From NCBI GenBank assembly GCA_026395915.1, contig JAPLXU010000018.1, forward strand, positions 23,832-76,575: 52,744 nucleotides of DNA, in the 5' to 3' direction. The stretch's first letter is position 1. The number at the start of each line of letters is the position of its first letter. The notes under the pieces are model-generated. The model ran no database searches and was not told where the DNA came from. It saw nothing but the letters and a program-made list of their open reading frames with translations. This DNA is from Candidatus Nomurabacteria bacterium. Lineage in GTDB: Bacteria > Patescibacteriota > Minisyncoccia > Phycocordibacterales > UBA9973. Both the position numbers and the translations under genes were made by a program. Positions 1,100 through 50,206 of this stretch are shown here, one piece after another.

Positions 1100-3421
1100 C
1101 TATTTCTCTTTCTTCCCCAAACGTTCTTTTAATACTCCAATTTCATCTCGCAATATCGCCGCGGTTTCGAAGTCCAATTCTTTCACAGCCTTATTCATTT
1201 CCTTCTCTTTTATTTTAATTATTTTTTCATAAATAAGATTGCCCCGCTCTTCATCAGACAAAATCTGATTCCATAATTCGGAATTAACTTTCTTGCGTCC
1301 GAGTTTTTCCTCTTGGCTGAGTTCTTTGGAATAAGCTTTCTTGAAAACTTCCAAATCAAGTTTGAGTTCCGCATTTACGATTTTTCCATGCTCGCTTTCC
1401 ATCTCTTCAGTAATATCTTTTATCTTTTTTACTATAGTTTTAGGAGTAATACCGTGTTTTTTGTTATAAGCAAGTTGAATATTTCGACGGCGAGCGGTTT
1501 CTTTTAAAGCGTATTCGATGGCGCTTGTCATGACATCGGCGTATAAAATAACTTTACCTTCGCTGTTCCTCGCGGCGCGACCGATAACTTGAATAAGCGA
1601 CGTTTCAGAACGCAAAAATCCCGCTTTGTCAGCATCCAGAATTCCAATCAAAGCAACTTCAGGCAAATCGAGCCCTTCTCGCAGCAAGTTTACACCAACT
1701 AAAACATCAAATTCGCCTTTTCGAAACTGTGTGAGAATCTTGATTCGTTCCATTGTTTTTATATCACTGTGCAGATACTCCGCTTTTATTTTTTTGTCTT
1801 TCAAATAGACAGAAAGATCTTCCGCCATCTTTTTTGTCAGTGTTGTAGCCAGAATGCGAAAACCTTTTGCGATTGTTTTTTCCGCCTCAGCGATGAAATC
1901 TTGAATTTGGCCGGGAAAAAGCGAGAAGTTTTCTTTTTTGGGTGTCTCGCAAGCCGACGGGCCGAGAGGCAGCGCTGGGACAGCAGTCCCAGACAGCGAC
2001 CCAAAAAAGGAAGACTTATCGCTTTTTCCGAAAATTTTACTTTCAGAAACCGGTCTCACTACGGTCTCCGGATCCACGAGCCCAGTCGGACGAATTATTT
2101 GCTCCACAATTTGTTCGCTCTGCGTTCTTTCTTGTTCGCTCGGAGTCGCGCTGGTGTAAATGACGGAACTGATTCTTTTTTGAAATTCCTCATATTTGAG
2201 AGGCCTGTTGTCTTTTGCTGATGGCAGACGAAAACCGTATTCCACAAGGGTATTTTTGCGAGAAGCATCTCCAGCATACATACCTTGGAGTTGGGGCAGG
2301 GTGACGTGTGATTCGTCGATAATTGTCAAAAAACCTGTCTTTGGAAAATATGAAAGCAACGTTTCTGGCGGTTCCCCTTCCGCTTTCCCAGACAAATGTC
2401 TCGAATAATTTTCAATCCCGTTACAATAACCGATCTCTTTTATCATCGCTAAATCATAATTTGTTCTTCTTTTGATTCTTTCCACTTCTAGCAATTTACC
2501 TTCTTTTTTGAATTTTTTAAGTTGAACTTCTAATTCCTTTTTAATATTCACTAAAGCCTTTTTCTTTTTTTCATCCTCAGTTATAAAGTGTTTGGCAGGA
2601 AAAATAAAAATATTTTTTTCCCCGCCTTCATCGCTATGCCAGCCCGAATCGCTACGCGAAGCGTTGCTGGCGGGCGAAGCATTGCGGGCAGGTTCTTTCA
2701 AAATTTGTGACGAGATTGGATCTATTTTAAGAATTTTTGAAATTACCCCTCCTGATATTTCAACTTGATACATAATAGACTCTGAAACAGGCATGAATTC
2801 CACCCTAGATCCGAGGGAACGAAAACTGCCGGGTGTAAGGTCTGCATTTGTGCGTTCGAAATGTATAGCAATGAGAGATTTCATCAAAGCCATCCTGTCC
2901 ATCTTTTGTCCAACCTCTAATTTAAGATTAACTTTTTCATATTCCTCCGGAGAACCCAAACCATAAATACAAGACACTGAAGCGACTATGATGACGTCAG
3001 GACGAGTGAGAAGAGCTTGAGTGGAAGCATGGCGAAGCATGTCTATCTCTTTGTTGATAGAAGCGTCCTTTTCGATATAAGTATCCGAGGCCGGCATGTA
3101 AGCTTCCGGTTGGTAGTAATCATAGTAAGAAACGAAATAGTGCACAGCAGAATTTGGAAAAAATAATTTAAACTCCTGCGCGAGTTGGGCGGCGAGAGTT
3201 TTATTGTGAGCTATCACCAGGGTCGGTTTGTTGTATTCCGCTATCACGTTTGCCATTGTGAAAGTTTTCCCCGTGCCTGTGGCCCCGAGCAATGTTTGTT
3301 TCTTCATTCCCTTTTTGAGCCCTTCACAGAGCTTCGAAATAGCCGAGGGTTGATCACCGCTTGGCTCCCAAGGCTTGCACAACTTGAAAATATTGGACTT
3401 TTTCTCCTCTCTTTTTAACAT
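1100..3421 (-). CDS. uvrB: Excinuclease ABC subunit B (UvrB), 773 aa, enlarged by two GC-rich insertions
   Basis: GATGTGKTFT Walker A, RPTGLVDP, ATTLTKKMAEDLSVYL, C-terminal UVR-like coiled coil (FETAAILRDEI). ATG start at 3421. Confidence 0.95.
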   Translation of the reverse strand: MLKREEKKSNIFKLCKPWEPSGDQPSAISKLCEGLKKGMKKQTLLGATGTGKTFTMANVIAEYNKPTLVIAHNKTLAAQLAQEFKLFFPNSAVHYFVSYYDYYQPEAYMPASDTYIEKDASINKEIDMLRHASTQALLTRPDVIIVASVSCIYGLGSPEEYEKVNLKLEVGQKMDRMALMKSLIAIHFERTNADLTPGSFRSLGSRVEFMPVSESIMYQVEISGGVISKILKIDPISSQILKEPARNASPASNASRSDSGWHSDEGGEKNIFIFPAKHFITEDEKKKKALVNIKKELEVQLKKFKKEGKLLEVERIKRRTNYDLAMIKEIGYCNGIENYSRHLSGKAEGEPPETLLSYFPKTGFLTIIDESHVTLPQLQGMYAGDASRKNTLVEYGFRLPSAKDNRPLKYEEFQKRISSVIYTSATPSEQERTQSEQIVEQIIRPTGLVDPETVVRPVSESKIFGKSDKSSFFGSLSGTAVPALPLGPSACETPKKENFSLFPGQIQDFIAEAEKTIAKGFRILATTLTKKMAEDLSVYLKDKKIKAEYLHSDIKTMERIKILTQFRKGEFDVLVGVNLLREGLDLPEVALIGILDADKAGFLRSETSLIQVIGRAARNSEGKVILYADVMTSAIEYALKETARRRNIQLAYNKKHGITPKTIVKKIKDITEEMESEHGKIVNAELKLDLEVFKKAYSKELSQEEKLGRKKVNSELWNQILSDEERGNLIYEKIIKIKEKEMNKAVKELDFETAAILRDEIGVLKERLGKKEK
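1912..2046. repeat. ~135-bp nested palindromic insertion in uvrB (63-bp GC-rich core 1940-2002 plus ~30-bp inverted arms)
   Basis: Arms cgggaaaaagcgagaagttttcttttttg (1912-1940) and ccaaaaaaggaagacttatcgctttttccg (2001-2030) are imperfect reverse complements. The core GGGTGTCTCGCAAGCCGACGGGCCGAGAGGCAGCGCTGGGACAGCAGTCCCAGACAGCGACCC recurs in inverted orientation in pcrA. It encodes an extra ~44 aa between VRPV and GQIQDF, the region that lies between conserved UvrB motifs. Confidence 0.8.
2620..2690. repeat. Second GC-rich imperfect palindrome, in-frame in uvrB
   Basis: cccgccttcatcgctatgccagc ... gctggcgggcgaagcattgcggg with ends pairing (GCCAGC/GCTGGC, CCCGC/GCGGG) around a CGCT-acgcga-AGCG centre. 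Translated as PARNASPASNASRSDSGWHSDEGG. Strong local GC excess against AT-rich flanks. Confidence 0.5.
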
Positions 3422-5649: not shown

Positions 5650-8064
5650 CTATTTTACCTCTCCAAAATTGTCTCCGGAACCTGAATGCACTTCAAGTGG
5701 AATATCAGTTTTGTAATGCAAATACGACCTTTCGAGCACGTTTTGCATGGCGTTTTTTATTATTTTTTCAGCTTTTTCCAAAACACCATCCTCTATTTCA
5801 TAAACAAGTTCGTCGTGAATTTGCAAGACGAGATGAGCTTTGTCTAAAAGCTTCCCCTCTTTCAAATCTTCTTCCGTGTATCTGATAGCGAGCTTGATGA
5901 TGTCCGCTGTGGCTGTGCCTTGGATCGGAGCGTTTATCGCTGTTCGTTCTGCCATGTTTTTCAAAAATGGAATTCTGGAATTTATATTTGGAAAATATCT
6001 GCGTCTGCCGAACAAAGTCTCAGTGTAAGAATTTTTCAAGGCAAATCTTTTTACCTCTTCCAAATAATCTCGCACGCCGGAAAATTGATTGAAATAATTG
6101 TCGTAAAATTTTTGCGCTTCCTCGCGAGTACCTCCGAGATTTTTTCGCAGAGATGAAACTCCCATACCGTAAATTATACCGAAATTTATAACTTTCGCTT
6201 TGCGACGCATCTCACTGTCAACTTTATCCAAAGGTACACCAAAAACAAACGAAGCGACTCCGGAATGAATATCTTTTTTCTCGCGAAAGATCTGTGTCAT
6301 CTTTTTATCCCCCGACATCATCGCCGCCACACGCAATTCAATCTGACTATAATCAAAAGCGCAAAGCTTGGAGCCTTTACCCGCAATAAACCCGCCACGA
6401 ATTTTTTTACCCAACTCAGTTTTTATCGGCAAGTTCTGCAAATTCGGATCCTGTGAAGAAAATCTCCCCGTCGTTGTGCCATTTTGTAAAAATTTTGCAT
6501 GGAGTCTGTTGTCCTCGCCTGTCATTTTTGGAATTACATCAATATAAGTGGAAAGTAATTTTTGTAATTCACGATAAGCTAAAATTTCTTTGATTATCGG
6601 ATTTTCTTCCTCCAATTCTTCCAACACAGAAACTTTTGTGGAAAAAGAACCAGAGGCATTTTTCTTTTTACTTGATTTCATACCCATTTTTCCAAACAAT
6701 ACTTCGCCCATTTGTTTAGGAGAATTGATATTGAATTCCGTGCCCGCCATTTTATATATTTTCGAGGTGAGCTTGTCCAGTTCCTCATGATACTCGGCCG
6801 ATAAATTTTTAAAATATTTTTTGTCTATCAAAATTCCATAATCTTCCATTTCTTTCACTGCGCTCATTATTGGGCGTTCAATTTCTGAATATATTTTATC
6901 CAGTTTATTTTCTTTCAGCTGGTCGAAAATATAATCGTAGGCGGTCTCAAAGGAATCCGTGTTTGCAAACAATAAGATATCGCTCAATTGGGGATTTGAA
7001 ATATCGGAATTTATGAGCCAAAGAGCTATGCTAGCTTCTTGAAGCTTGATGGGGGAAGAAAAATTCAGAGAATTTTCTAGTGGTCTGGCCGGGGCGAGGG
7101 GCCCCGGGGAACCGAGGACCCTAGAAAATTCTTCTGGATTTTTCTTCTCTTCCCTTCCAAAGAAATTTTTCAGACGTCCAAACAAACTTCTAAATTCAAA
7201 CTTGGCAAAAACTTGTTCCACTTTTTTCGGATCCACTGTCTCCCAAAAAGTTTTATCCGGCAGAACAAAATCCACGGGCGCGTCTGTTCTGATTTTAGCC
7301 AAGGTTTTTGAAAAAAGCGCTTCCTCTTCGTTGTTTTTTATCAACTCTATCATCCTCTTGCTTATACCGGCCTTTTCAAAAATTTCTTCATCTTTTCTTA
7401 TTTTTTTGTAAATTTCTTCAATAGTTCCAAAAGTTGAAATCAAAATCGTGGCTGTCTTTTCTCCGATGCCTTTGATGCCTTTGATGTTGTCGGACGGATC
7501 TCCGCGCAATCCTTTGTAGTCCGGCAAAAGTTTCGGTTTGAACCCAAAACGATTTACGACTGCGTCCTCGTCATATAAAATTGTGTCATTGATACCTTTT
7601 TTCAAAGTGTAAACCTGCACTTTTTTATCATCTACCAATTGCATCGTGTCCATATCACCCGACGCAATAATTATATTCACATCATTGTTCTTCATTTGCT
7701 CGACTATCGTCCCAATGACATCATCAGCTTCGAAACCCGGACAGTCGTACATGGGAATGCCAAAAGCTTCAAATATAGAGCGAGAATTTTTTAATTGCAT
7801 AATGAGCGCGTCGTCAGCTTTTGCTCGCCCGGCTTTGTATGCGTCATAAGCTTCGTGTCTGAATGTTTTCTGTGGTAAGTCATAACAGGCCACAATAAAG
7901 TCCGGTTTCAAATCTGTAATTATCTTCATCAGCATTGAAGAAAGCCCATACAAAGCGCCCGTCGGTTCGCCCTTGGAAGACAAAAACTCAGGCAAGGCGT
8001 GATAGGCGCGATGGATTATAGCGTGAGAATCGAGCAAAACAAGAGTTCTTGTATCTTTAGGCAT
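5650..8064 (-). CDS. polA: DNA polymerase I (5' nuclease plus polymerase domains), start reassigned to MPKDTRTLVLLDSHAIIHRAYHALP
   Basis: 5'-nuclease N-terminus, motif A DYSQIELRV, motif B RRKAKVINFGIIYG, motif C QIHDELV. The track ORF extends to 8193, but the conserved protein begins at the ATG at 8064-8062. Confidence 0.93.
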   Translation of the reverse strand: MPKDTRTLVLLDSHAIIHRAYHALPEFLSSKGEPTGALYGLSSMLMKIITDLKPDFIVACYDLPQKTFRHEAYDAYKAGRAKADDALIMQLKNSRSIFEAFGIPMYDCPGFEADDVIGTIVEQMKNNDVNIIIASGDMDTMQLVDDKKVQVYTLKKGINDTILYDEDAVVNRFGFKPKLLPDYKGLRGDPSDNIKGIKGIGEKTATILISTFGTIEEIYKKIRKDEEIFEKAGISKRMIELIKNNEEEALFSKTLAKIRTDAPVDFVLPDKTFWETVDPKKVEQVFAKFEFRSLFGRLKNFFGREEKKNPEEFSRVLGSPGPLAPARPLENSLNFSSPIKLQEASIALWLINSDISNPQLSDILLFANTDSFETAYDYIFDQLKENKLDKIYSEIERPIMSAVKEMEDYGILIDKKYFKNLSAEYHEELDKLTSKIYKMAGTEFNINSPKQMGEVLFGKMGMKSSKKKNASGSFSTKVSVLEELEEENPIIKEILAYRELQKLLSTYIDVIPKMTGEDNRLHAKFLQNGTTTGRFSSQDPNLQNLPIKTELGKKIRGGFIAGKGSKLCAFDYSQIELRVAAMMSGDKKMTQIFREKKDIHSGVASFVFGVPLDKVDSEMRRKAKVINFGIIYGMGVSSLRKNLGGTREEAQKFYDNYFNQFSGVRDYLEEVKRFALKNSYTETLFGRRRYFPNINSRIPFLKNMAERTAINAPIQGTATADIIKLAIRYTEEDLKEGKLLDKAHLVLQIHDELVYEIEDGVLEKAEKIIKNAMQNVLERSYLHYKTDIPLEVHSGSGDNFGEVK
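7051..7154. repeat. ~104-bp palindromic insertion in polA (AT-rich inverted arms, GC-rich core)
   Basis: The left arm gggggaagaaaaattcagagaattttctag (7051-7080) is an imperfect reverse complement of ctagaaaattcttctggatttttcttctcttccc (7121-7154). Core: tggtctggccggggcgaggggccccggggaaccgaggacc. Translated as ...PEEFSRVLGSPGPLAPARPLENSLNFSSP... in the linker between the nuclease and polymerase domains. Confidence 0.7.
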
Positions 8065-8100
8065 TGTGTAAATTATACCATTTAAGCTACAATATATAAA

Positions 8101-8858
8101 TGAGCAAGGACTCCCCTTGCTCAAAATTATGTCTAAGAATATAATAGGCAGATGTACAGAAAAACACCATTTGCGGAAAATGAACATTATCATATTTATT
8201 CTCGAGGAGTAGAAAAACGCAAAATATTTTTAAATACGAAAGACTACAACCGTTTTGTTGCCCTCTTGTACATAATGAACCAAACTGATCCATTCAGAAT
8301 GGACAATTTCATGCGCGAAAATAAAAATAATTTAACAAACATTTTCAATGAGGAAAGAAATAAACCTCTCGTGTCAATATTGGGTTATTGTTTAATGCCA
8401 AATCATTTTCATTTGATTTTATACGAACGCACAGAAAATGGAATAAGTAAATTCATGGGCAAGCTCTTAACTGCCTACTCAATGTATTTCAATACAAAAT
8501 ACGAACGAAGTGGTCCCCTTCTGACAAGACCATTCCGATCGGAACATATTAGTAGTGAATCACAATACATGTATATATTTTCTTATATTCATCTCAACCC
8601 ACTCTCAATTATTGATAAAACATGGAAAGAGGATGGCGTGAAAAACAAAAACATGGCAAAAGATTTTTTAGAAAACTATCAATTTTCAAGCTTTCAAGAC
8701 TTTCTCGAAAAAGATCGACCAGAAAAAATAATACTAGATTTTTCGTTAATTCCAGAATATATAAAGAATATGGAATTAGGTTTTAAAACATACGAGCAGT
8801 TATTTCAAGAAAATATCAATGCAAAACAACAGAGTTGAGCAAGGGGAGTCCTTGCTCA
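8101..8858 (+). mobile_element. REP-RAYT-REP unit: Y1/HUH (IS200-like, REP-associated) transposase gene bracketed by perfect inverted 23-nt hairpins
   Basis: 8101-8123 tgagcaaggactccccttgctca and 8836-8858 tgagcaaggggagtccttgctca are exact reverse complements. Each is a 9-bp stem with a 5-nt loop. The right hairpin includes the transposase stop codon. Confidence 0.8.
8152..8838 (+). CDS. REP-associated tyrosine transposase (RAYT) / IS200-like Y1 transposase
   Basis: HUH motif in GYCLMPNHFHLILYE and catalytic-Tyr region YIFSYIHLNPL. 228 aa with an ATG start. Confidence 0.85.
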   Translation: MYRKTPFAENEHYHIYSRGVEKRKIFLNTKDYNRFVALLYIMNQTDPFRMDNFMRENKNNLTNIFNEERNKPLVSILGYCLMPNHFHLILYERTENGISKFMGKLLTAYSMYFNTKYERSGPLLTRPFRSEHISSESQYMYIFSYIHLNPLSIIDKTWKEDGVKNKNMAKDFLENYQFSSFQDFLEKDRPEKIILDFSLIPEYIKNMELGFKTYEQLFQENINAKQQS

Positions 8859-8866
8859 GTTGGGGA

Positions 8867-8937: not shown

Positions 8938-9606
8938 TTACTGTTGCGGGGTAACGACACGAGGCTGATACTGGGCACGCCAGACGAAGTCGTCCGAGAA
9001 CTCGTCGACGTACACCCAGAGCTGACCAAAGTCGCCGAAGCTCACGAGGGCAACGAAGACATTTGATAGATCGTCCTTGACAGGTTCGTCGTCCTTCGTG
9101 ACCACAGCAAAAACAGAATACCTATCTTTACACAACTTCTTGGAGTGTGTGTTGCTAAGATTGGCAAGATGACCTCTGTGTAATCGTCGTTGCTCAAGTT
9201 GAAGGGCAGTATTCCCCAAAAAATCTGGGAACTTACCATTTTCAACAAGCTCATCGACAACAACTTTGATTGCCGGCGCCGGCTTGCACTTGCCAAGCAG
9301 GCTCTCGCCGAAAACCCCACCCGGAAAGACACCGCTTTCCTCCAGCGTTTTCTTGCCATCGGTGGCGCCGACGATAATCACTTCCGTTTCAAACAGGCGA
9401 CGGAGATAAACTTTCTCAGCGACCTGATTTACGATGTCCTGAAGAATTCCCGCGACCTTTTCTGGGTCACGGACTCCGTCCATGATCATTTTTCCGACCA
9501 TGATATAGAGTTTCCAAAGACGCTCATAAACATTTCCGACAACCACAACTGCGTTATTTTTGTTACCCACAATTACCTCTCTTATTTTTATGTTATGTGC
9601 ATTCAC
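8938..9606 (-). CDS. Hypothetical protein, 222 aa, GC-rich foreign-looking gene (GTG start)
   Basis: Long ORF whose composition and GC-rich third codon positions (e.g. gac gag ttc tcg gac gac ttc gtc tgg cgt gcc) contrast sharply with the AT-rich neighbours. No motif recognised. Confidence 0.55.
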   Translation of the reverse strand: MNAHNIKIREVIVGNKNNAVVVVGNVYERLWKLYIMVGKMIMDGVRDPEKVAGILQDIVNQVAEKVYLRRLFETEVIIVGATDGKKTLEESGVFPGGVFGESLLGKCKPAPAIKVVVDELVENGKFPDFLGNTALQLEQRRLHRGHLANLSNTHSKKLCKDRYSVFAVVTKDDEPVKDDLSNVFVALVSFGDFGQLWVYVDEFSDDFVWRAQYQPRVVTPQQ

Positions 9607-20148: not shown

Positions 20149-20217
20149 AACCCCCTAACCCCCTTATCAGGGGGAATGAATTTCGCCTCCCCTGACAAGG
20201 GGAGGTTGGGAGGGGTT
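20149..20217. repeat. Double-hairpin GC-rich palindromic element (same architecture as 33553-33619), just upstream of ruvC
   Basis: aaCCCCCtaaCCCCCttatcaGGGGGaatgaatttcgCCTCCCCtgacaaGGGGAGGttgggaGGGGtt: two stem-loops plus outer pairing. The track ORF 20176.. reads through it, but RuvC starts at 20242. Confidence 0.75.
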
Positions 20218-20241
20218 GTAAAAAATGTTAAACTTCTTGTT

Positions 20242-20742
20242 ATGAGAATTTTAGGAATCGATCCGGGATTTGAGAGATTGGGCATCGCTGTACTCGATCC
20301 TGCTCTCCGCAAGGAGCGAGGTGAGAAAGATCATTGCGTAGTTTTTTCGGAATGTTTCAAGACTTCCAGCAAGTTGGGTTTTTCTGAACGACTAAACTTG
20401 ATAGGTAAAGAAGTCCACAAAATAATAAAAGAATACAAGCCGGAGATTCTCGCCATCGAGACTTTATTTTTGAACACAAATCAAAAGACGGTGATGCGCG
20501 TCGCTGAAGCGCGCGGAGTTGTGATTTATGAAGCGTCTTCGGCTGGACTCAAAGTCTTTGAAGCTTCCCCGCCCCAGATAAAGATAGCGACGACGGGTTA
20601 CGGCAGAGCGAACAAAGAGCAAATTATGAAAATGGTAAAAATATTGGCCGAAATGGATACTTCCAAAACTTCTGACGACGAACTAGATGCTATAGCGATA
20701 GCTTTGACTGCTTTTGCGCATTTGAAAGTGTTAAAAAAGTAA
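20242..20742 (+). CDS. ruvC: Crossover junction endodeoxyribonuclease RuvC (start reassigned to MRILGIDPG)
   Basis: MRILGIDPGFERLGIAVLD catalytic Asp motif, AIETLF, DELDAIAIALTAF C-terminal acidic motif. Confidence 0.9.
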   Translation: MRILGIDPGFERLGIAVLDPALRKERGEKDHCVVFSECFKTSSKLGFSERLNLIGKEVHKIIKEYKPEILAIETLFLNTNQKTVMRVAEARGVVIYEASSAGLKVFEASPPQIKIATTGYGRANKEQIMKMVKILAEMDTSKTSDDELDAIAIALTAFAHLKVLKK

Positions 20743-20838
20743 AAATATATCAATATCAGCGACTTTCGCAGGCTGGCGAGCCGAGAATGAGCAAATTTTC
20801 AGCAGAAAATTATGCGACGGTGATATTGATATATTTTT
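20741..20838. repeat. 98-bp palindromic element with perfect 18-bp terminal inverted repeats; core shared with the rsmA insertion at 47695-47806
   Basis: AAAAATATATCAATATCA (20741-20758) is the exact reverse complement of TGATATTGATATATTTTT (20821-20838). The internal hairpin AATTTTC-agca-GAAAATT lies within a 19-nt identity (aaattttcagcagaaaatt) to the rsmA element on the opposite strand. The element overlaps the ruvC stop codon by 2 nt. Confidence 0.8.
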
Positions 20839-20848
20839 ACTTTTGGAC

Positions 20849-20857: not shown

Positions 20858-20937
20858 CTTTGGGTCATTTTGCTATTGCCAAGTCTTTTTGATTTTGGTA
20901 CAAAGTATGGAATTAGAAGCGGGTCGCTTTAATAAAA

Positions 20938-20971
20938 TTTCCGCCAAAGGCGGATCCGCCTTTGGCGGAAA
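20938..20971. repeat. 34-bp perfect palindrome centred on GGATCC
   Basis: TTTCCGCCAAAGGCGGATCCGCCTTTGGCGGAAA. It can form one long hairpin, or two short ones (CCGCC-aaa-GGCGG and CCGCC-ttt-GGCGG). Confidence 0.85.
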
Positions 20972-20988
20972 AAATAAAAATAAAAAAA

Positions 20989-21135: not shown

Positions 21136-21168
21136 AAAAAAAACGGAAGCAAGGCTTCCGTTTTTTTT
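21136..21168. terminator. Bidirectional intrinsic terminator (A8-hairpin-T8) shared by the mini-ORF and tyrS
   Basis: aaaaaaaaCGGAAGCaagGCTTCCGtttttttt. The T-run overlaps the tyrS stop codon. Confidence 0.8.
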
Positions 21169-32578: not shown

Positions 32579-33943
32579 TTATTTAAGAGAAAATTCCCAT
32601 AGATAAGAATCTTTTTTGTTCACAAAAAATAAGTAATTTCCACTGTCGTCTAGAGCAAGTTTTATGCCATCTATTTCTCCCACAGCAATTGTGACTGGAT
32701 CTAGTATCATTGTCCCGTTTCCGGTTTTCACATCTATTTTCCAAATTTGGTCGTTGAAAGACATTTCTCCTTGATACCAAGTATCGGGATATTCTCCTAT
32801 ATTTATTAATTTTGGTACAGCGCAATAAATAGTATCGCTTGCTTTACCCCAAACGCATTTTTCCGGTAGAGTTTTTACTCCTAACACATCGGAATTCCTT
32901 GTGTCTGTGTGATAAATATTGATTGATAAATTGCTGTCGCCATAAAGTATCAGCTTCCCATTAGGGCTTGCAAGTGTGGTCAGTCCGTTTATTTCGCCTA
33001 GAATTTTAGTTAAATTTTTACCCGATCCGTCCATGCTGTATATATACCCCGGAATATTTGCGGAAGGTTTGGTTGAGAGAGTGATGAGGTTGGCAGTTGG
33101 CCAAAGCGATAGCCATTCTGTAAAAGGAGAATCGAATATCTGAGTCTTCTTGTTTGTTAACAAGTTTAGAATCACACCTATCATATCGTCTCCGCTATCA
33201 AACAAGTAAAACACCTTTGAAGTATCTGGCGAGATACTTATATCTTTCACATTATCAGGCAAAAAGTTTCCTTTAATTTCGTTATTTCCTGTCACATCTG
33301 CTCCCAATAACTCTTTCGGAAGGGTTCCAACGAAAGTTTCGATAGTCCTGTCATTTCCTTTTAAATGTCGCATTACGACAGATTCCCCGTGGTTACCGAA
33401 ATATGCATCATGCACTTTAGGTATTATAGTTGAAGAAAATTTTTGCTCTTTTATTTTATCGGCAAAGGTTTGGTAAATATTTCCAGTTGCTATGTCCACA
33501 TATCTCAAAGCCGGCGCGAATTCAGTTGGTGGAGGAGTTGGCTTCTTGGTTTGACCCCCCGAACCCCCCTTAGCAGGGGGGACGCCCTCCCCTGATAAGG
33601 GGAGGGTTGGGGTGGGGTTTGTTATTACCGTTGGAACCTCTTTTAATCTTTCTTTTTGAAAAACTGCAAATCCCGCTATGGGCATACTCGAAATTTTTAT
33701 CAATTTTAACACTGGTGTGTTTGTGACAGGAGGAATATATCCTGAAACATCTACTGGGGGCGTTGTAACTGGAGGCGTCGGCTTGTTGTTGTTTCCGAAT
33801 GGATTGAATTGTGAAAAAAAGTTTGTGCCCCCGCTGTTATCCCCCGGCGCGGTTGTTCCTTTTTGGAAATACAAAAATCCAAAAACGGCGATTACCACGA
33901 GGATTGAGATTATTATTAAAAGTATAAAATTTCTTTTTGACAT
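32579..33943 (-). CDS. Membrane-anchored exported protein with a Pro/Thr-rich linker and PD40/TolB-like beta-propeller-type repeats (last gene of the T4SS-like locus)
   Basis: N-terminal TM FILLIIISILVVIAVFGFLYF, PTPPVTTPPV linker, recurring SPDTSKVFYLF / SPNGKLILYG / DDSGNYLFFV motifs. Confidence 0.6.
   Translation of the reverse strand: MSKRNFILLIIISILVVIAVFGFLYFQKGTTAPGDNSGGTNFFSQFNPFGNNNKPTPPVTTPPVDVSGYIPPVTNTPVLKLIKISSMPIAGFAVFQKERLKEVPTVITNPTPTLPLSGEGVPPAKGGSGGQTKKPTPPPTEFAPALRYVDIATGNIYQTFADKIKEQKFSSTIIPKVHDAYFGNHGESVVMRHLKGNDRTIETFVGTLPKELLGADVTGNNEIKGNFLPDNVKDISISPDTSKVFYLFDSGDDMIGVILNLLTNKKTQIFDSPFTEWLSLWPTANLITLSTKPSANIPGYIYSMDGSGKNLTKILGEINGLTTLASPNGKLILYGDSNLSINIYHTDTRNSDVLGVKTLPEKCVWGKASDTIYCAVPKLINIGEYPDTWYQGEMSFNDQIWKIDVKTGNGTMILDPVTIAVGEIDGIKLALDDSGNYLFFVNKKDSYLWEFSLK
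33553..33619. repeat. Double-hairpin GC-rich palindromic element, in-frame in the 454-aa gene
   Basis: gaCCCCCCgaaCCCCCCttagcaGGGGGGacgCCCTCCCCtgataaGGGGAGGGttggggtGGGGtt. Same two-hairpin plan as 20149-20217. Translated as NPTPTLPLSGEGVPPAKGGSGGQ. Confidence 0.75.
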
Positions 33944-39664: not shown

Positions 39665-40177
39665 TTATTTATTCCCCTCTTGAGGGGTGGCTGAAAGCCG
39701 GGGTGGAAATATCTGTCCACCTCCCTCCGACTTATGGTCGGAGTGCTCCTCAAGAGGAGAATTTTCGCGTGTCGGTTTTACAAATGCGGAATAATCTCCG
39801 CCGGAAAGGATAAAATCAAGATTTTGCTCCGGACTCGGATTCTTGGCTTTCAGATTTTTTTTGACTTTTTCTTCCAAAAGGTCGCCAATCGGAGTGAATA
39901 TTTTTTGAAAGGCTTCTCCGGCGATTTTCTCCGCTTCTTCTTTGCTGGTGCCAACCTCATTTTCGATATTTTGTGCGTAATAGTTTCCGTCTTCCAAGCC
40001 GACGAGAACCAACAAAGTTTCCACTTGCAAATTGTTTATCTCGCTTTCGTCAAACAGATATTTTTTGCCGATTTCTTCAGTAATGCTTCCCCAATCCAAA
40101 GAATTGATAGCCTCTTGAGTCTCTCTTGGCAATTTTGCAATTTCGTCTTGAATTATTTGTTTTAATTTTTCTGTCAT
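39665..40177 (-). CDS. Cytoplasmic hypothetical protein, 170 aa, paralogue of the 218-aa gene; C-terminal 30 aa encoded by a palindromic element
   Basis: See the motif list for 38994..39650. The ORF reads through the element at 39672-39761 and stops at a TAA just beyond it. Confidence 0.55.
   Translation of the reverse strand: MTEKLKQIIQDEIAKLPRETQEAINSLDWGSITEEIGKKYLFDESEINNLQVETLLVLVGLEDGNYYAQNIENEVGTSKEEAEKIAGEAFQKIFTPIGDLLEEKVKKNLKAKNPSPEQNLDFILSGGDYSAFVKPTRENSPLEEHSDHKSEGGGQIFPPRLSATPQEGNK
39672..39761. repeat. 90-bp MITE-like element with 16-bp imperfect TIRs and three internal stem-loops (copy 1)
   Basis: TTCCCCTCTTGAGGGG...CTCCTCAAGAGGAGAA (TIR 14/16). Internal stem-loops GGCT-gaa-AGCC, GGTGGA-aatatctg-TCCACC and CTCCGAC-ttatg-GTCGGAG. 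It shares 22-nt and 18-nt identical ends with 47296-47379. Confidence 0.8.
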
Positions 40178-47119: not shown

Positions 47120-48152
47120 CTAAAACAATCCAATCCGCGAGCGACAAATCTTCCGCTCTTTTGTTTCCTAAGCCTTCTAAAACGGAAGCAAGGCTTCCGT
47201 TTTTTGATAGAGTTTTTAGATTAGAAGATAGCTTTTTTCTTTTGTGCGCAAAGCCCGTTTTTACTATTTCCCAGAATTTTTGCTCATCAACCTTATTCCC
47301 CTCTTGAGGGGTGGCTCGTTCGCGAGACGGGGTGGATGCATTTCCACCTCCCCCTAAAGGGTACTCCTCAAGAGGAGAATTGAAATTCTTCCTTGAAATA
47401 TTTTTTATCGAAATTATCGCCGAGTCTACTTTTGGCGCTGGCGAAAAATATCTTTTTTCAACTTTTGCGATCATTTTTGGTTCACCATATGCTTTGACCG
47501 AGATAGATAGGATGCTTTCTTTCTTGCCCGCCATAGCTTTAGCGGAGGAGGGGCTATTTCCAATTATTCTCTGTGCGACTTCGTGCTGAACCATGAGAAC
47601 CATCATTTCTGGCTGATGCGTTTCTTCTAAAAATTTTTTTAAAATCGCGCCGGTGATGTTGTAAGGAATGTTGGCGATGATTTTGTAGGTTTTAGGGTTT
47701 GGTAAAATGTTTTCGGACTCACCACAAAAATTTTCTGCTGAAAATTTTCTCTGTTCGTTGCCGTCGCAACTCCCAAGGGTTCGCTCGAAAACATTTTGCC
47801 AAACCCTTGTAATGTCGAATTTTAATATGTCATCATGTACTAGTACGAGGATACCTGAAGTGATTTGTTCTGCGAATTTGATTTTCAAGAATTCAAAAAG
47901 TTCGTAGTCTTTTTCCACAGCGATTACTGTTCCCGCTTTTTCTAGAAGTTTTTCCGTGAGCGCTCCCCTGCCTGGCCCGATTTCTAAAATCACATCATCC
48001 TGCTTTATTTCCCCCACCTCGATAATTTTTCGGAGAGCTGTCTCCGATTTTAGAAAATTTTGCCCTAATGATTTTTTTGCTCTTATAAAGGTACCACTTT
48101 TTGCGATAGCAGAACTTGGTACCTTTTTATTTTTTTTATAATATCTTTTCAT
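47088..48152 (-). CDS. rsmA: 16S rRNA (adenine1518/1519-N6)-dimethyltransferase RsmA/KsgA, 354 aa, enlarged by two palindromic insertions
   Basis: KKSLGQNFL, SAM motif VILEIGPGRGALT, ANIPYNITGAIL, C-terminal RAEDLSLADW. ATGA start/stop overlap with pcrA. Confidence 0.9.
   Translation of the reverse strand: MKRYYKKNKKVPSSAIAKSGTFIRAKKSLGQNFLKSETALRKIIEVGEIKQDDVILEIGPGRGALTEKLLEKAGTVIAVEKDYELFEFLKIKFAEQITSGILVLVHDDILKFDITRVWQNVFERTLGSCDGNEQRKFSAENFCGESENILPNPKTYKIIANIPYNITGAILKKFLEETHQPEMMVLMVQHEVAQRIIGNSPSSAKAMAGKKESILSISVKAYGEPKMIAKVEKRYFSPAPKVDSAIISIKNISRKNFNSPLEEYPLGGGGNASTPSRERATPQEGNKVDEQKFWEIVKTGFAHKRKKLSSNLKTLSKNGSLASVLEGLGNKRAEDLSLADWIVLAREETNPPLE
47179..47205 (+). terminator. Intrinsic terminator for the PG-binding gene, lying inside the convergent rsmA coding region; exact 27-nt copy of the tyrS terminator
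   Basis: aaaaCGGAAGCaagGCTTCCGtttttt is identical to 21140-21166. It lies 60 nt after the stop at 47119. On the other strand it encodes KNGSLASVLE of RsmA. Confidence 0.6.
47296..47379. repeat. 84-bp MITE-like element (copy 2 of 39672-39761), in-frame in rsmA
   Basis: Same ends and the same central GGTGGA...TCCACC stem. The first stem-loop is replaced by CTCG-ttcg-CGAG. Translated as NSPLEEYPLGGGGNASTPSRERATPQEGNK; copy 1 gives NSPLEEHSDHKSEGGGQIFPPRLSATPQEGNK. Confidence 0.8.
47695..47806. repeat. 112-bp palindromic element with 21-bp TIRs (20/21), in-frame in rsmA; core shared with 20741-20838
   Basis: GGGTTTGGTAAAATGTTTTCG...CGAAAACATTTTGCCAAACCC. Internal hairpins AAAATTTTC-tgc-TGAAAATTTT and GTTGC-cgtc-GCAAC. 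It accounts for ~37 extra aa between HDDILKFDITR and YKIIANIPYN. Confidence 0.8.
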
Positions 48153-50206
48153 ATATAAATTGTTTTTATCCCAGTTTTTTCTCCCTCTTTTTCTAATAAA
48201 TCTGCTGGGATGTCACTAATAAATTCTGAAGGCGCGTTTATTTGGCGTGAACCGAAAATCGTGCGGAAATTTGCGAATGATAAAAATAACTTTTCTTTTG
48301 CGCGTGTAATTGCCACATAAAAAAGCCTGCGTTCTTCTTCTTTATCTGCGCCCACTTCTTCGTTGCTTTTTTGGTGCGGGAAAAGTCCGTCCTCCAAGCC
48401 GGTGACGAAAATATATTTGAATTCAAGCCCTTTTGAAGCGTGCACAGTCATCAGTTTGACTGCGTTTATTGTTTCTTTTTTTTCCCCTCTCTCTATCAAG
48501 CTGTCTTGATCGGAAGCAAGCGAAGCGTCTTCTAAAAGTTTTTCTATACCGAGACCATTTTCGAGATTATCGTATTTTAAGGCCAGTGTTGCAAGCTCTT
48601 TTATGTTTTCCAATCTTTCGATATCTTCCTCGGTACCGGACGAAAGTTCATTTTCAATACCTGATTTTTTCACCACAAATTTTATTACCTGACTGGTTTT
48701 TTCTTGTTTTATTTTTTCTCTTATTTCTTCAAGTATTTTATAAAAATTGTCGATTTTGATTTTCATTTTCACCGGCAAGTTTTCTTTTTCGCCAGAAAAC
48801 ATTTTTGCTAAGGTAGTTTTGCCGATTCCTCGCGTTGGGAAATTTATTATTCTTTTTATATCAGAAAGACTGTCGGGATTGAGCGCAGCGCGGAGATAAG
48901 CGAGAGTGTCTTTTATTTCTTTTCTCTCGAAAAATTTAATCCCCAAAACCTGATATGGAATGTTGTATCGAAGCATAGCTTCCTCAAGCGCCCGAGATTG
49001 GAAATTCGCGCGGTAAAGAACTGCGATACTGGACAAAATGTTCTCAGATTCTGATAGTTCCGCAGGTTCTTCCTTCTCGGGGTCGCTGTCTCCGCGTGTT
49101 CGCGGAGCGCTGCCTCTCGGCTCGTCAGCCTGCGAGACACCCCGACAAGAAAGACCTGCAGAACTATCCAGTATCTCCAAAATTTTTGTTGCAACGAATT
49201 CTGCTTCATCGTTTTCTTCCAATGCTTCGTAGAGGCCTATTTTTTCTCCAGTCTCGTTTTTTGTGAATAGATTTTTGTCTGGTCTGTATTTATTTTTTTT
49301 AATTACGACGTTTGCAGCCTCCAATATGTTCTTTGTTGACCGATAGTTTTCCTCCAACAAAACTATTTTCGCGTTAGGATAATCTTTTTCAAAACTCAAA
49401 ATATTTTTCAAATTCGCTCCGCGCCAAGAATAGATATTCTGGTCTGCGTCTCCGACGACGCAGATGTTTTTGTGGTTTTCCGCCAGCATTTTTGCCATCA
49501 AATATTGCACTTCGTTTGTGTCCTGATACTCGTCTATGTGGATGTATTCCCATTTTTCTTGATATATTTTTCTGATTTCAGCATTATCCTTCAACAATTT
49601 TGTGGCTTTCAAAAGCAAGTCGTCGAAATCAAGCGAATTTTCTTTTGTTTTCCGTTTTTCATACAAGTTCCAGACTTGAGCCACCATCCTGCCGTAGGCA
49701 CTCTTCTCCCCTTCTTCATAATCCGACAATTGGACGAATTTTCCCTTTTCCCGAGATATAATATTTTTTATTTTTTTCGGATCGTATTGTTTTGGGTCTA
49801 TTCCGATCTCTTTCAATATTTCTTTTATGAGAGTTGTGCTTTCTGACTCATCTAAAATGCTGAAGTATCTTGTGAGTCCGAGCAACCTAGCATTTTCTTT
49901 TATAATATAAACCCCGAGAGAATGAAAAGTGCTGACGAATGGAATTCTCTCTTGGCCTTTCACGTTTTTTTCAATTTCGGCAATAACACGCTCGCGCATT
50001 TCTTTTGCCGCTTTGTTGGTAAAAGTGACAGCCAAAATTCGCTCAGGATCAACTCCATTTTTTATCAGATTCACAATCCTGTGCGTTATGGTTTTAGTTT
50101 TTCCCGCGCCAGCGCCGGCAACAATAAGAAGCGGACCATCCGAATGGATCGCCGTTTCTTTTTGTTCTTTATTTAGTCCCGATAGGTGTTGTGTGTCTGT
50201 ATTCAC
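48149..50206 (-). CDS. pcrA: ATP-dependent DNA helicase PcrA/UvrD (GTG start), carrying a ~135-bp palindromic insertion
   Basis: LNKEQKETAIH, AGAGAGKTKT, DEYQDTN, VGDADQNIYSWRGA, TVHASKGLEF, YVAITRAKE. Confidence 0.92.
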   Translation of the reverse strand: MNTDTQHLSGLNKEQKETAIHSDGPLLIVAGAGAGKTKTITHRIVNLIKNGVDPERILAVTFTNKAAKEMRERVIAEIEKNVKGQERIPFVSTFHSLGVYIIKENARLLGLTRYFSILDESESTTLIKEILKEIGIDPKQYDPKKIKNIISREKGKFVQLSDYEEGEKSAYGRMVAQVWNLYEKRKTKENSLDFDDLLLKATKLLKDNAEIRKIYQEKWEYIHIDEYQDTNEVQYLMAKMLAENHKNICVVGDADQNIYSWRGANLKNILSFEKDYPNAKIVLLEENYRSTKNILEAANVVIKKNKYRPDKNLFTKNETGEKIGLYEALEENDEAEFVATKILEILDSSAGLSCRGVSQADEPRGSAPRTRGDSDPEKEEPAELSESENILSSIAVLYRANFQSRALEEAMLRYNIPYQVLGIKFFERKEIKDTLAYLRAALNPDSLSDIKRIINFPTRGIGKTTLAKMFSGEKENLPVKMKIKIDNFYKILEEIREKIKQEKTSQVIKFVVKKSGIENELSSGTEEDIERLENIKELATLALKYDNLENGLGIEKLLEDASLASDQDSLIERGEKKETINAVKLMTVHASKGLEFKYIFVTGLEDGLFPHQKSNEEVGADKEEERRLFYVAITRAKEKLFLSFANFRTIFGSRQINAPSEFISDIPADLLEKEGEKTGIKTIYI
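49033..49171. repeat. ~135-bp nested palindromic insertion in pcrA: same core as the uvrB element, in the opposite orientation relative to the host gene
   Basis: The reverse complement of core 49079-49143, GGGGTGTCTCGCAGGCTGACGAGCCGAGAGGCAGCGCTCCGCGAACACGCGGAGACAGCGACCCC, aligns along its length with 1940-2002. The arms ctgatagttccgcaggttcttccttctcgggg and ccccgacaagaaagacctgcagaactatccag are imperfect reverse complements. It encodes ~45 extra aa (DSSAGLSCRGVSQADEPRGSAPRTRGDSDPEKEEPAELSESENIL). Confidence 0.8.

Follow-up and report, generated by a model that had tools for sequence, protein, structure and literature searches.

A palindromic insert in pcrA of a Nomurabacteria genome belongs to a large Patescibacteria family that conserves structure and is probably mobile

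Palindromes that lie within genes and are translated together with them have been described in Rickettsia. The Rickettsia palindromic elements (RPEs) are in-frame palindromes in housekeeping genes; the extra peptides are judged compatible with the protein folds, and each RPE family is described as encoding one conserved peptide (PMC10969869). The GC clusters of fungal mitochondria form a second group, with a hairpin under constraint, short target duplications, nesting and merging of elements, and a mechanism of mobilisation that is not known (PMC4478555). Here we discuss a GC-rich palindromic insert in pcrA, the gene of a UvrD-family helicase, in 52,744 nucleotides of a Candidatus Nomurabacteria genome (contig JAPLXU010000018.1, positions 23,832 to 76,575; this whole stretch is "the window", and coordinates refer to it). 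Judged by analogy, the RPEs are its closest described counterpart.

The pcrA insert is one copy of a large family in Patescibacteria (the Candidate Phyla Radiation, CPR), probably a non-autonomous mobile palindrome that is defined by its structure and is translated through where it lies in permissive loops. The family spreads, or has spread, as a unit, and it lands in or beside genes. The pcrA copy is composed as follows.

48149-50206, minus strand: pcrA, the host gene, encoding a UvrD-family helicase of 685 residues
49051-49171, minus strand (core-forward, the sense strand of pcrA): the whole palindromic element, 121 nt; DNA fold of -43.1 kcal/mol, z -8.46
49140-49171, minus strand: 5' arm of the stem P1, CTGGATAGTTCTGCAGGTCTTTCTTGTCGGGG, encoding LDSSAGLSCRG
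49083-49139, minus strand: three-way-junction core, 57 nt (alignment columns 17-73), encoding GVSQADEPRGSAPRTRGDSD
49119-49130, minus strand: hairpin H1 (P2b), GGCT-GACG-AGCC; columns 26-29 pair with columns 34-37
49091-49106, minus strand: hypervariable hairpin H2 (tip of P3), TCCGCG-AACA-CGCGGA
49051-49082, minus strand: 3' arm of P1, CCCCGAGAAGGAAGAACCTGCGGAACTATCAG, encoding PEKEEPAELSE and bearing the family's extra bulged nucleotide
49033-49050, minus strand: ESENILSS-coding tail outside the palindrome; PcrA orthologs with another family at this site end ...GESENILS(E/S)-IAVLYRAN

The GC content of this island is 72% in a window of 39%, and in the DNA fold its two arms form a stem of ~30 bp. 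The surrounding segment of PcrA is translated as ...ATKILEILDSSAGLSCRGVSQADEPRGSAPRTRGDSDPEKEEPAELSESENILSSIAVLYRAN... Alignment to the solved PcrA structure 1PJR splits into residues 5-347 and 391-675, with the 43 residues 348-390 lying opposite only ~5 residues of 1PJR; there, the insert position falls between a helix and a strand (the motif-IV strand) flanking residues 345-351. The insert is predicted to be an unstructured loop: AlphaFold returns a pLDDT (predicted local distance difference test) below 50 and no secondary structure for residues 350-388, in a model of moderate quality (mean pLDDT 66, predicted template modelling score 0.48) that was used solely for this call of disorder. A preliminary description of the window had placed the insert at 49033-49171 and put the gain in PcrA at ~45 residues. 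The inserted sequence is as reported there. The palindrome itself begins at 49051, however, leaving 49033-49050 outside it, and the net gain is ~38 residues relative to the insert-less ortholog at locus L118, which has only DKGSIASD at this position. The ESENILSS tail is similar to an arm of an insert in ksgA (47705-47800) and, from this sequence likeness, is probably the leftover distal arm of a different palindromic family rather than part of the element.

The insert site in PcrA is a hot spot. An exact look-up with the PcrA of the window gave no match; the closest ortholog is 84% identical, and most of the 120 closest orthologs have this element family at the site, in either orientation; some have a different family (ERTLGRSDGDGQRKFSAENFRGESENIL), some have both, nested, and a few have neither. 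The site in L119 is not truly empty, as it holds GEGNIF, a remnant of another family, and L118 has a 12-nt mini-palindrome, so that the pre-insertion target in PcrA is not cleanly readable.

The extent of the family was determined by an exact pattern scan (GAGAGGCAGCGC-N16-GACAGCGAC) over one genome per species, which gave at least 117 loci. Family counts given here are of copies with the full core among the matches listed, the window's two included. Counted in this way, there are at least 115 full-core copies in at least 77 Patescibacteria genomes of 29-58% GC, labelled Nomurabacteria, Kaiserbacteria, Vogelbacteria, Paceibacterota, Parcubacteria and similar; the few pattern matches from outside the Patescibacteria, among those listed, are all without the core. 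A scan of viral contigs with the core pattern gave 0 matches and hence no sign of phage carriage. A full-text search of the open literature found no paper on palindromic inserts in Nomurabacteria or CPR genes.

The elements are 95-125 bp long, GC-rich and without coding capacity of their own. The 107 distinct copies align over 86 columns with zero gaps, and this alignment was used to build a covariance model, R1, with which the pcrA element scores 98.9 bits. The search pattern itself fixes columns 38-49 and 66-74; among the remaining columns, conservation is still at least 90% for GTGTCTCGCAG and the H1 loop. The core folds as a three-way junction in which stem P1 consists of the long variable arms. 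Helix P2 starts from an invariant TCTC/GAGA base (P2a) and, past a GCA bulge, ends in H1, a 4-bp tip closed by a GACG loop; in helix P3, the base GCGC/G-a-C-a-GC is invariant and the tip is H2, made of a T-A pair plus five variable pairs closed by an AGCA loop. P2 and P3 are joined by GGCA, and the inner arm follows a loose YTTTTnnGGGG consensus. Junctions, bulges and loops are thus conserved in sequence, and the helices in pairing only.

Covariation over the 107 distinct copies is extensive. Watson-Crick or G-U pairs occupy 96.3% of the paired cells, against 75.2% in shuffled alignments (0/500 reach the observed value) and 40-48% when the partners are slid. Double changes number 678 cells, compared with 188 after shuffling and 79-126 with slid partners, although these are numbers of cells and not of events, many copies being orthologous. 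Compensated changes number 30-53 at each of the five inner H2 pairs, against 0-1 one-sided, and in H1, where 98.6% of the cells are paired, all four pairs have double changes (2-44 per pair). The 115 listed copies have 55 distinct H2 hairpins, in which 674 of 690 pairs (97.7%) are Watson-Crick; G-U pairs make up 0-2 of 107 at each pair of H1 and H2. RNAalifold independently recovers P1, H1 and P3; its pairing of the invariant P2a base is shifted by two columns relative to the tested structure. The same pattern is seen at the protein level in PcrA orthologs that were gathered without the DNA pattern: the residue variants SAPRARGDS, SAVLPSTDS, SAGAAAPDS, SAVPVGTDS, SAGPAGPDS, SAVRARTDS and SAPSADGDS covary, each being consistent with a perfect stem. 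The claim that structure and not sequence is kept, made from two copies with many copies as its test, is borne out by these data, in which changes are compensated and not random.

A hammerhead-like reading of CUGACGA in H1 was dropped; covariation backs the pairing of H1 and not that of GCC-GAGA-GGC, and no Rfam ribozyme was found. At gathering score, Rfam 15 reports one tRNA only in the whole window, and at E values up to 10 it gives noise matches only over 48980-49220.

The two copies on which the preliminary description was based lie in pcrA and uvrB; the window has, in addition, a diverged third copy.

1100-3421, minus strand: uvrB, the host gene, encoding 773 residues; the insert is translated as GKSDKSSFFGSLSGTAVPALPLGPSACETPKKENFSLF
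1914-2029, plus strand (core-forward, antisense to uvrB): sister copy, with the core at 1943-1999, H1 at 1952-1963 and H2 at 1976-1991 (TGGGAC-AGCA-GTCCCA)
20735-20844, plus strand: third, diverged copy (subfamily B), with arms at 20735-20761 and 20818-20844, H1 GGCTGGCGAGCC and H2 AATTTTC-AGCA-GAAAATT

The uvrB copy scores 98.8 bits with R1, its arms (1914-1942 and 2001-2029) are complementary at 86%, and the unoccupied UvrB allele in L117 reads RPISEKGKYPGQIQD. A repeat search of the window pairs 1930-2014 with 49068-49152 as an 85-nt inverted match (79% complementary), and the 16-mer GCCGAGAGGCAGCGCT is found exactly twice in the window, for which the chance expectation is 0.17 with up to three mismatches. 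Because the match is inverted and both hosts are on the minus strand, the two copies are oppositely oriented to their hosts, and it is the 57-nt core that they have in common. GC skew has no switch between uvrB and pcrA, and so the copies are probably also opposite relative to the replication fork. Their hairpins are CTGGGAC-agca-GTCCCAG (uvrB, 1975-1992) and CTCCGCG-aaca-CGCGGAG (pcrA, 49090-49107, minus strand); among the five inner pairs, four are different (GGGAC/GTCCC versus CCGCG/CGCGG), and every change is compensated. As DNA, the two copies fold with z -5.2 to -8.5, and 0 of 200 shuffles are equally stable. What had been proposed for this pair, that is, one element in two orientations, a fully compensated exchange of hairpins, and arms that differ between copies while remaining self-complementary within each, agrees with these results.

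The third copy (R1 54.5 bits, E 4.8e-13; arms complementary at 96%) is intergenic and overlaps the stop codon of ruvC. Relatives of its subfamily are found at 79-165 in L087, 2975-3059 in L055 and 1691-1773 in L070, and the lower-scoring R1 relatives in the loci are subfamilies that have H1 and P2 in common and carry other P3 hairpins. It was considered as a decaying relic, an interpretation that was rejected since its H2 recurs in other genomes, which makes the third copy a member of a separate subfamily. At ~90 nt from it, at 20935-20974 in the spacer downstream of ruvC, lies a perfect 15-bp palindrome, TTTCCGCCAAAGGCGGATCCGCCTTTGGCGGAAA.

With respect to open frames, the listed copies are 45 sense, 41 antisense and 29 intergenic. 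Host sites could be annotated from flanking motifs in PcrA (two sites), TsaD, Tgt, UvrB (two sites), Fmt, IleS, KsgA and a terpene-cyclase-like protein, and single copies were also identified by eye in Def-, RluA- and MnmA-like open reading frames (ORFs). The annotated sites hold 30 sense and 31 antisense copies, and all 61 keep the host frame, without a stop in it. A single orthologous site can hold either orientation (sense/antisense: PcrA 11/4, TsaD 7/6, Tgt 3/12, Fmt 1/2; UvrB also has both). There is no orientation bias relative to genes nor, by inference, to replication. Whole elements have flipped repeatedly at orthologous sites: the arm asymmetries travel with the core when orientation differs, which indicates that the entire palindrome was inverted and not only its centre.

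As anticipated from the first two copies, each orientation gives an unrelated, stop-free peptide. One frame is used per orientation: GVSQADxPRGSA... in 35 of 45 sense copies, and GSLS..ALPLGSSACETP in 38 of 41 antisense copies (insert-encoded segments include GVSQADGPR and ALPLGSSACETPK). In AT-rich genomes, both mirror frames are open (67/69 and 66/69 copies), compared with only 26-67% of copies for the other four. Flipping a palindrome that is in-frame leaves it in-frame, so that flips are tolerated and either orientation is possible. Within genes, the element persists only where it is in-frame, stop-free and in a permissive loop. In AT-rich genomes, the majority of copies lie within genes. 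In genomes with 45% GC or more, they mostly lie between genes and next to gene ends (by crude ORF calls), often at a distance of 6-26 nt from a stop codon or of ~10 nt from a start codon.

These observations bear on three interpretations in which the insert acts, or is disposed of, at the level of RNA or protein. The first takes it for a functional structured RNA, either a cis-acting mRNA element (affecting stability, serving as an RNase III site or causing a translational pause) or an independent small RNA. A three-way junction with conserved junctions and loops and covarying helices is the usual signature of a functional RNA; arm mismatches on the core-forward strand favor G-T over A-C (45:16, and 16:1 in intergenic copies, with shared ancestry uncorrected); and, in GC-rich genomes, a hairpin lying 6-26 nt past a stop codon could protect or terminate the transcript. 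An RNA function is nevertheless unlikely, because copies are oriented at random to transcription and H1 and H2 have hardly any G-U pairs (0-2 of 107 per pair). At ~1:1 (30:31), with flips at the same site, half of the copies present the reverse complement. Near stop codons, moreover, the transcribed strand is mostly the reverse-core strand, with A-C and not G-U mismatches, and no Rfam family is matched at E values up to 10. The G-T excess in the arms hints that one strand folds on its own.

The second interpretation, that selection keeps the insert as a peptide module, a flexible and charged loop of PcrA, UvrB and further proteins, appears highly improbable. In its favor, PcrA orthologs strongly conserve GVSQADxPRGSA...DSDP, each orientation uses a single frame, and inserts persist in essential genes of species with ~80% protein identity. 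The conservation, however, goes with the nucleotide core, whichever its orientation and also where copies are intergenic, and the single frame follows from palindromic symmetry combined with stop avoidance. Moreover, the loop is predicted to be disordered, and the same site carries the reverse orientation, with its unrelated peptide GSLS..ALPLGSSACETP, another family or no copy at all. It is this tolerance of two unrelated peptides, another family or no insert that makes a function at the protein level improbable.

GC-rich mobile hairpins of AT-rich mitochondrial genomes can be bypassed in translation. A third interpretation is hence that the insert is removed or skipped upon expression, either by excision at the RNA level or by ribosomal bypassing like that of the yeast mitochondrial 'byp' elements, as a stem so long and perfect would place the two host junctions side by side. 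Neither an open frame nor a non-random use of frames is needed if the insert is skipped; yet both are seen, with 61/61 copies at annotated sites in-frame and stop-free, and we regard skipping as very unlikely.

Within a genome, copies resemble each other in H2. Identical H2 stems are found in 23 of 51 within-genome pairs, against 3.45 expected and a maximum of 12 over 5000 permutations; without the genome MFVF01, 13 of 41 pairs are identical versus 2.9 expected, and 4.5 are expected when permutation is done within GC classes (p=0.0002). The pairs that share H2 lie in different genes, with unrelated arms and often different H1, while orthologous sites in different genomes bear different H2 stems. 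H2 is thus genome-specific and the arms are copy-specific. Sharing of H2 within genomes implies either that cores are homogenised over very short tracts or that a trans-acting partner holds H2 to a sequence specific to the genome.

Evidence for movement of the complete element is found in MFVF01, where near-identical full elements (CTGTCCGGGGAAAATTCTCTTTTTGGGGG-core-CCCCCAAAAAGAGAATTTTCCCCGGACAG) are present at unrelated loci, two of them flanked by TAG/TAG and CTA/CTA. In GC-rich genomes, 18 of 44 copies have a direct CGAG on both sides at matching distance, 17-22 nt from the junction, where ~0.6 would be expected; the count is 0 of 68 in AT-rich genomes. The 3' strand of the invariant P2 helix likewise reads CGAG.

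L005, L007, L010, L016, L017, L020, L028, L037, L041, L050, L052, L054, L062, L074, L089, L095, L102 and L112, GC-rich Patescibacteria: intergenic copies bounded by (G)CGAG(Y)

In other species, alleles at the insert sites are without this element or have a different family. The arms hold an extra nucleotide ~15 bp from the junction (right arm 78, left arm 19, none 16; exactly position 15 in 43), and this fixed-distance 1-nt bulge on the 3' arm recurs at unrelated sites. Left-arm identity is 0.65 between copies that share a site, 0.54 between those that share a genome and 0.57 between those that share neither. In the UvrB loop, the arms of L103 are unrelated to those of L012 and L117 at the same place. 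The outermost ~6 bp of the pcrA and uvrB palindromes overlap host codons that are also present in insert-less alleles: the outermost CTGGAT of the pcrA 5' arm corresponds to the Leu-Asp codons CTG GAT found in L118 and L119, and the overlapping codons in UvrB are GGR AAA ... CCC GGC. In filled alleles, the flanking codons are shifted towards better pairing (for example, GGG AAA TAC CCC to GGA AAA...TTT CCC), and the stem may, to judge from these codons, creep outward into the host.

Some of these features would be accounted for if the palindromes were not mobile but had grown in situ by fold-back or template switching, with similar cores as a common mutational outcome or as ancient vertically inherited insertions. 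Arms that are copy-specific and weakly linked to site (0.65 versus 0.57), the match of the outermost ~6 bp to insert-less host codons, the shift of flanks in filled alleles towards better pairing, and the compensated divergence of orthologous arms are all in keeping with such growth. That it explains the family is quite unlikely, however, given a 57-nt core at no fewer than ten unrelated gene sites and in intergenic positions, in genomes of 29-58% GC, for which convergence is impossible. The same conclusion is suggested by the near-identical full elements in MFVF01, the unrelated arms in one UvrB loop, the CGAG direct repeats around GC-rich copies, and a bulge position that is fixed across sites. 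The preliminary description had raised fold-back duplication of flanking sequence at insertion as a source of the arms. As their main source it was rejected in light of the MFVF01 copies, the fixed bulge and the L103 arms, and it is retained for the outermost few bp only, where the stem overlaps host codons.

Collectively, a mobile palindrome remains the probable explanation. Its folded DNA, as a single-strand hairpin or a cruciform, would be the substrate of a trans-acting structure-specific enzyme, and H2 might act as a genome-specific recognition tag, by analogy to REPs and Y1 transposases or to attC sites and integron integrases. Pairing would be kept by selection on the fold, probably helped by templated correction from arm to arm, and transcription and translation of the inserts would yield passenger peptides, the one in PcrA being GVSQADEPRGSAPRTRGDSDP, in a disordered loop at the surface.

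Several points weigh against this explanation. No mobilising enzyme was identified, and no obvious parent insertion sequence (IS) is present in the 8-kb loci, over which no systematic search was made; the one Y1 transposase of the window is flanked by a different hairpin. Target-site duplication is not seen at intragenic copies. The arms vary among copies of one genome, unlike products of a transposase that binds terminal inverted repeats (TIRs), and H1 and H2, unlike the arms, have no excess of G-T over A-C (4 versus 7). The columns fixed by the search pattern and the orthology of many copies, both pointed out above, count here as well. Finally, copies at orthologous sites look vertically inherited and yet have a nearly invariant core. 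A dead passenger would not keep such a core, and hence resident copies are constrained or cores are repeatedly homogenised.

A more specific proposal is a two-part system in which a genome-encoded factor reads the three-way-junction DNA, with H2 as its address tag, and drives both inversion and copying, so that copies are kept matched. This possibility is doubtful. If true, it would add a new class to the DNA elements, one that is guided by structure and whose specificity hairpin co-evolves with its enzyme, and it would have spread across a major bacterial radiation within DNA-repair and tRNA-modification genes.

The Y1 transposase of the window (8152-8838, plus strand) is an IS200-like HUH enzyme (PF01797, 34.9 bits versus a cut-off of 23) with HFH and YIHLNP motifs. 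It is flanked by inverted hairpins, GAGCAAGG-ACTCC-CCTTGCTC, at 8098-8124 and 8835-8861, the layout of a REP-associated tyrosine transposase (RAYT) and its repetitive extragenic palindromes (REPs). The homologs in L049 and L024 each have simple hairpins of their own at their flanks, specific to the species and in no case with the studied core. It was considered as the enzyme of the element and set aside: no link between the two is shown, and homologs occur in 2 of the 117 listed loci, about as expected by chance, and have other hairpins. A 222-residue ORF that adjoins the transposase (8938-9606) has stretches of 62-67% GC and no Pfam match and may be foreign DNA. In addition, the terminator-like hairpin ACGGAAGCAAGGCTTCCGT is found in identical form at gene ends at 21143-21161 and 47182-47200, and it also flanks and interrupts the Y1 homolog in L024 (5537-6097); its presence in the window and in L024 makes it a REP-like repeat shared across species.

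Other structured inserts are present in the window. A second, unrelated GC-rich insert in uvrB (2614-2702), with a fold of -34 kcal/mol, encodes PARNASPASNASRSDSGWHSDEGGE. An in-frame GC-rich palindrome with ~30-bp arms lies at 7050-7147 in the gene of DNA polymerase I (5650-8193, minus strand); it encodes EEKKNPEEFSRVLGSPGPLAPARPLENSLNF and has a weak family-model score (19 bits) owing to its similar architecture. Two inserts lie in ksgA/rsmA, at 47291-47372 and 47705-47800, the product having 354 residues compared with 288 in L118; the latter insert is of the ERTLG..QRKFSAENF..ESENIL family, which also fills the PcrA site in other species and has one copy in the ksgA of L118, while in L092 the same ksgA site is occupied by the studied family. 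A GC-rich multi-hairpin insert at the end of an open frame (39672-39743) has CCCCTCTTGAGGGGTGGCT in common with the ksgA insert at 47291-47372. Lastly, a double-hairpin family (CCCCCTTAnnAGGGGG / CCTCCCCTGAyAAGGGGAGG) is found at 185-222, 20151-20218 and 33555-33625, with two copies in long open frames and one at the start of ruvC.

The window alone thus has at least nine GC-rich structured inserts, several of them in essential genes (pcrA, uvrB twice, polA and ksgA twice), which suggests a large load of mobile or structural DNA that gene callers translate silently. Patescibacteria genomes are tiny and thought to be streamlined, and such a load inflates and distorts the protein families of the radiation. 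With 55 hairpin variants, almost no intermediates and genome-specific tags, the family is a clean natural case of compensatory DNA evolution. It could show how palindromes persist, by selection or by templated correction and conversion, and could lead to a new structure-specific DNA enzyme. The core could also be used as a simple lineage marker, and the insert sites as a map of permissive loops in conserved enzymes.

How does the family compare with known systems? Like REPs and REPINs, it consists of dispersed GC-rich hairpins, REPs being recognised as folded single-stranded DNA, and it has a short conserved flanking tetranucleotide, here CGAG and in GC-rich lineages only. REPs are extragenic, 20-40 nt long and conserved over the whole palindrome, whereas the present element spans 95-125 nt with a branched core, and its copies are extragenic in GC-rich genomes but mostly intragenic in AT-rich ones. 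The homogeneity within and divergence between genomes that is typical of REPs applies to the H2 stem only, and a cognate RAYT flanked by the same repeat is lacking, as the Y1 transposase of the window has a different hairpin at its flanks. Palindrome-associated elements derived from IS200/IS605 insert 3' of a fixed tetra- or pentanucleotide and have hairpins recognised as single-stranded DNA; what is observed here in this respect is the tetranucleotide at both ends in GC-rich lineages, more G-T than A-C mismatches on one arm strand, and no bias of orientation. With transposable elements of the miniature inverted-repeat type (MITEs; Correia, ERIC and Nezha), the family shares being non-autonomous, ~100 bp long, palindromic, multi-copy and sometimes fused in-frame to genes. 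A target duplication of the MITE type would correspond to CGAG at 18 of 44 GC-rich copies and to TAG/TAG and CTA/CTA in MFVF01, with none at intragenic copies. MITE ends are conserved TIRs shared with a parent IS; here, the termini are least conserved and the centre most.

The fungal mitochondrial GC clusters, double-hairpin elements and 'byp' elements are likewise mobile GC-rich hairpins in AT-rich genomes, and some of these GC-rich elements insert into coding sequence. They differ in being organellar and ~30-80 nt long, a three-way junction closed by a long stem is not known from them, and some are bypassed in translation, while the evidence here points to read-through. As in integron attC sites, structure and a few bases are conserved, stems vary, and an extrahelical base is fixed on one strand. 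The layout is the opposite, as attC has its R''/L''-L'/R' boxes at the outer ends and a variable centre; attC sites also lie in cassette arrays beside an integrase, and nothing of that kind is seen here.

The likeness to RPEs is the most complete. Both are short palindromic repeats without coding capacity of their own, with many in-frame insertions in housekeeping genes of a reduced, AT-rich genome and with no identified transposase. The size and stable hairpin of RPEs (~100-150 bp) are matched by the pcrA and uvrB elements, of 116-121 nt and with z -5.2 to -8.5, their repetition by at least 115 copies, and their in-frame presence in unrelated genes by the 61 copies at annotated sites. The comparison was made by description, and the hosts are Patescibacteria and not Rickettsia. 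A single peptide per family, as in RPEs, is not what is found: sense (30) and antisense (31) copies give two unrelated peptides at the same sites. Moreover, and again unlike RPEs, it is the centre that is conserved, while the arms and one hairpin vary with compensation and that hairpin, H2, is specific to the genome.

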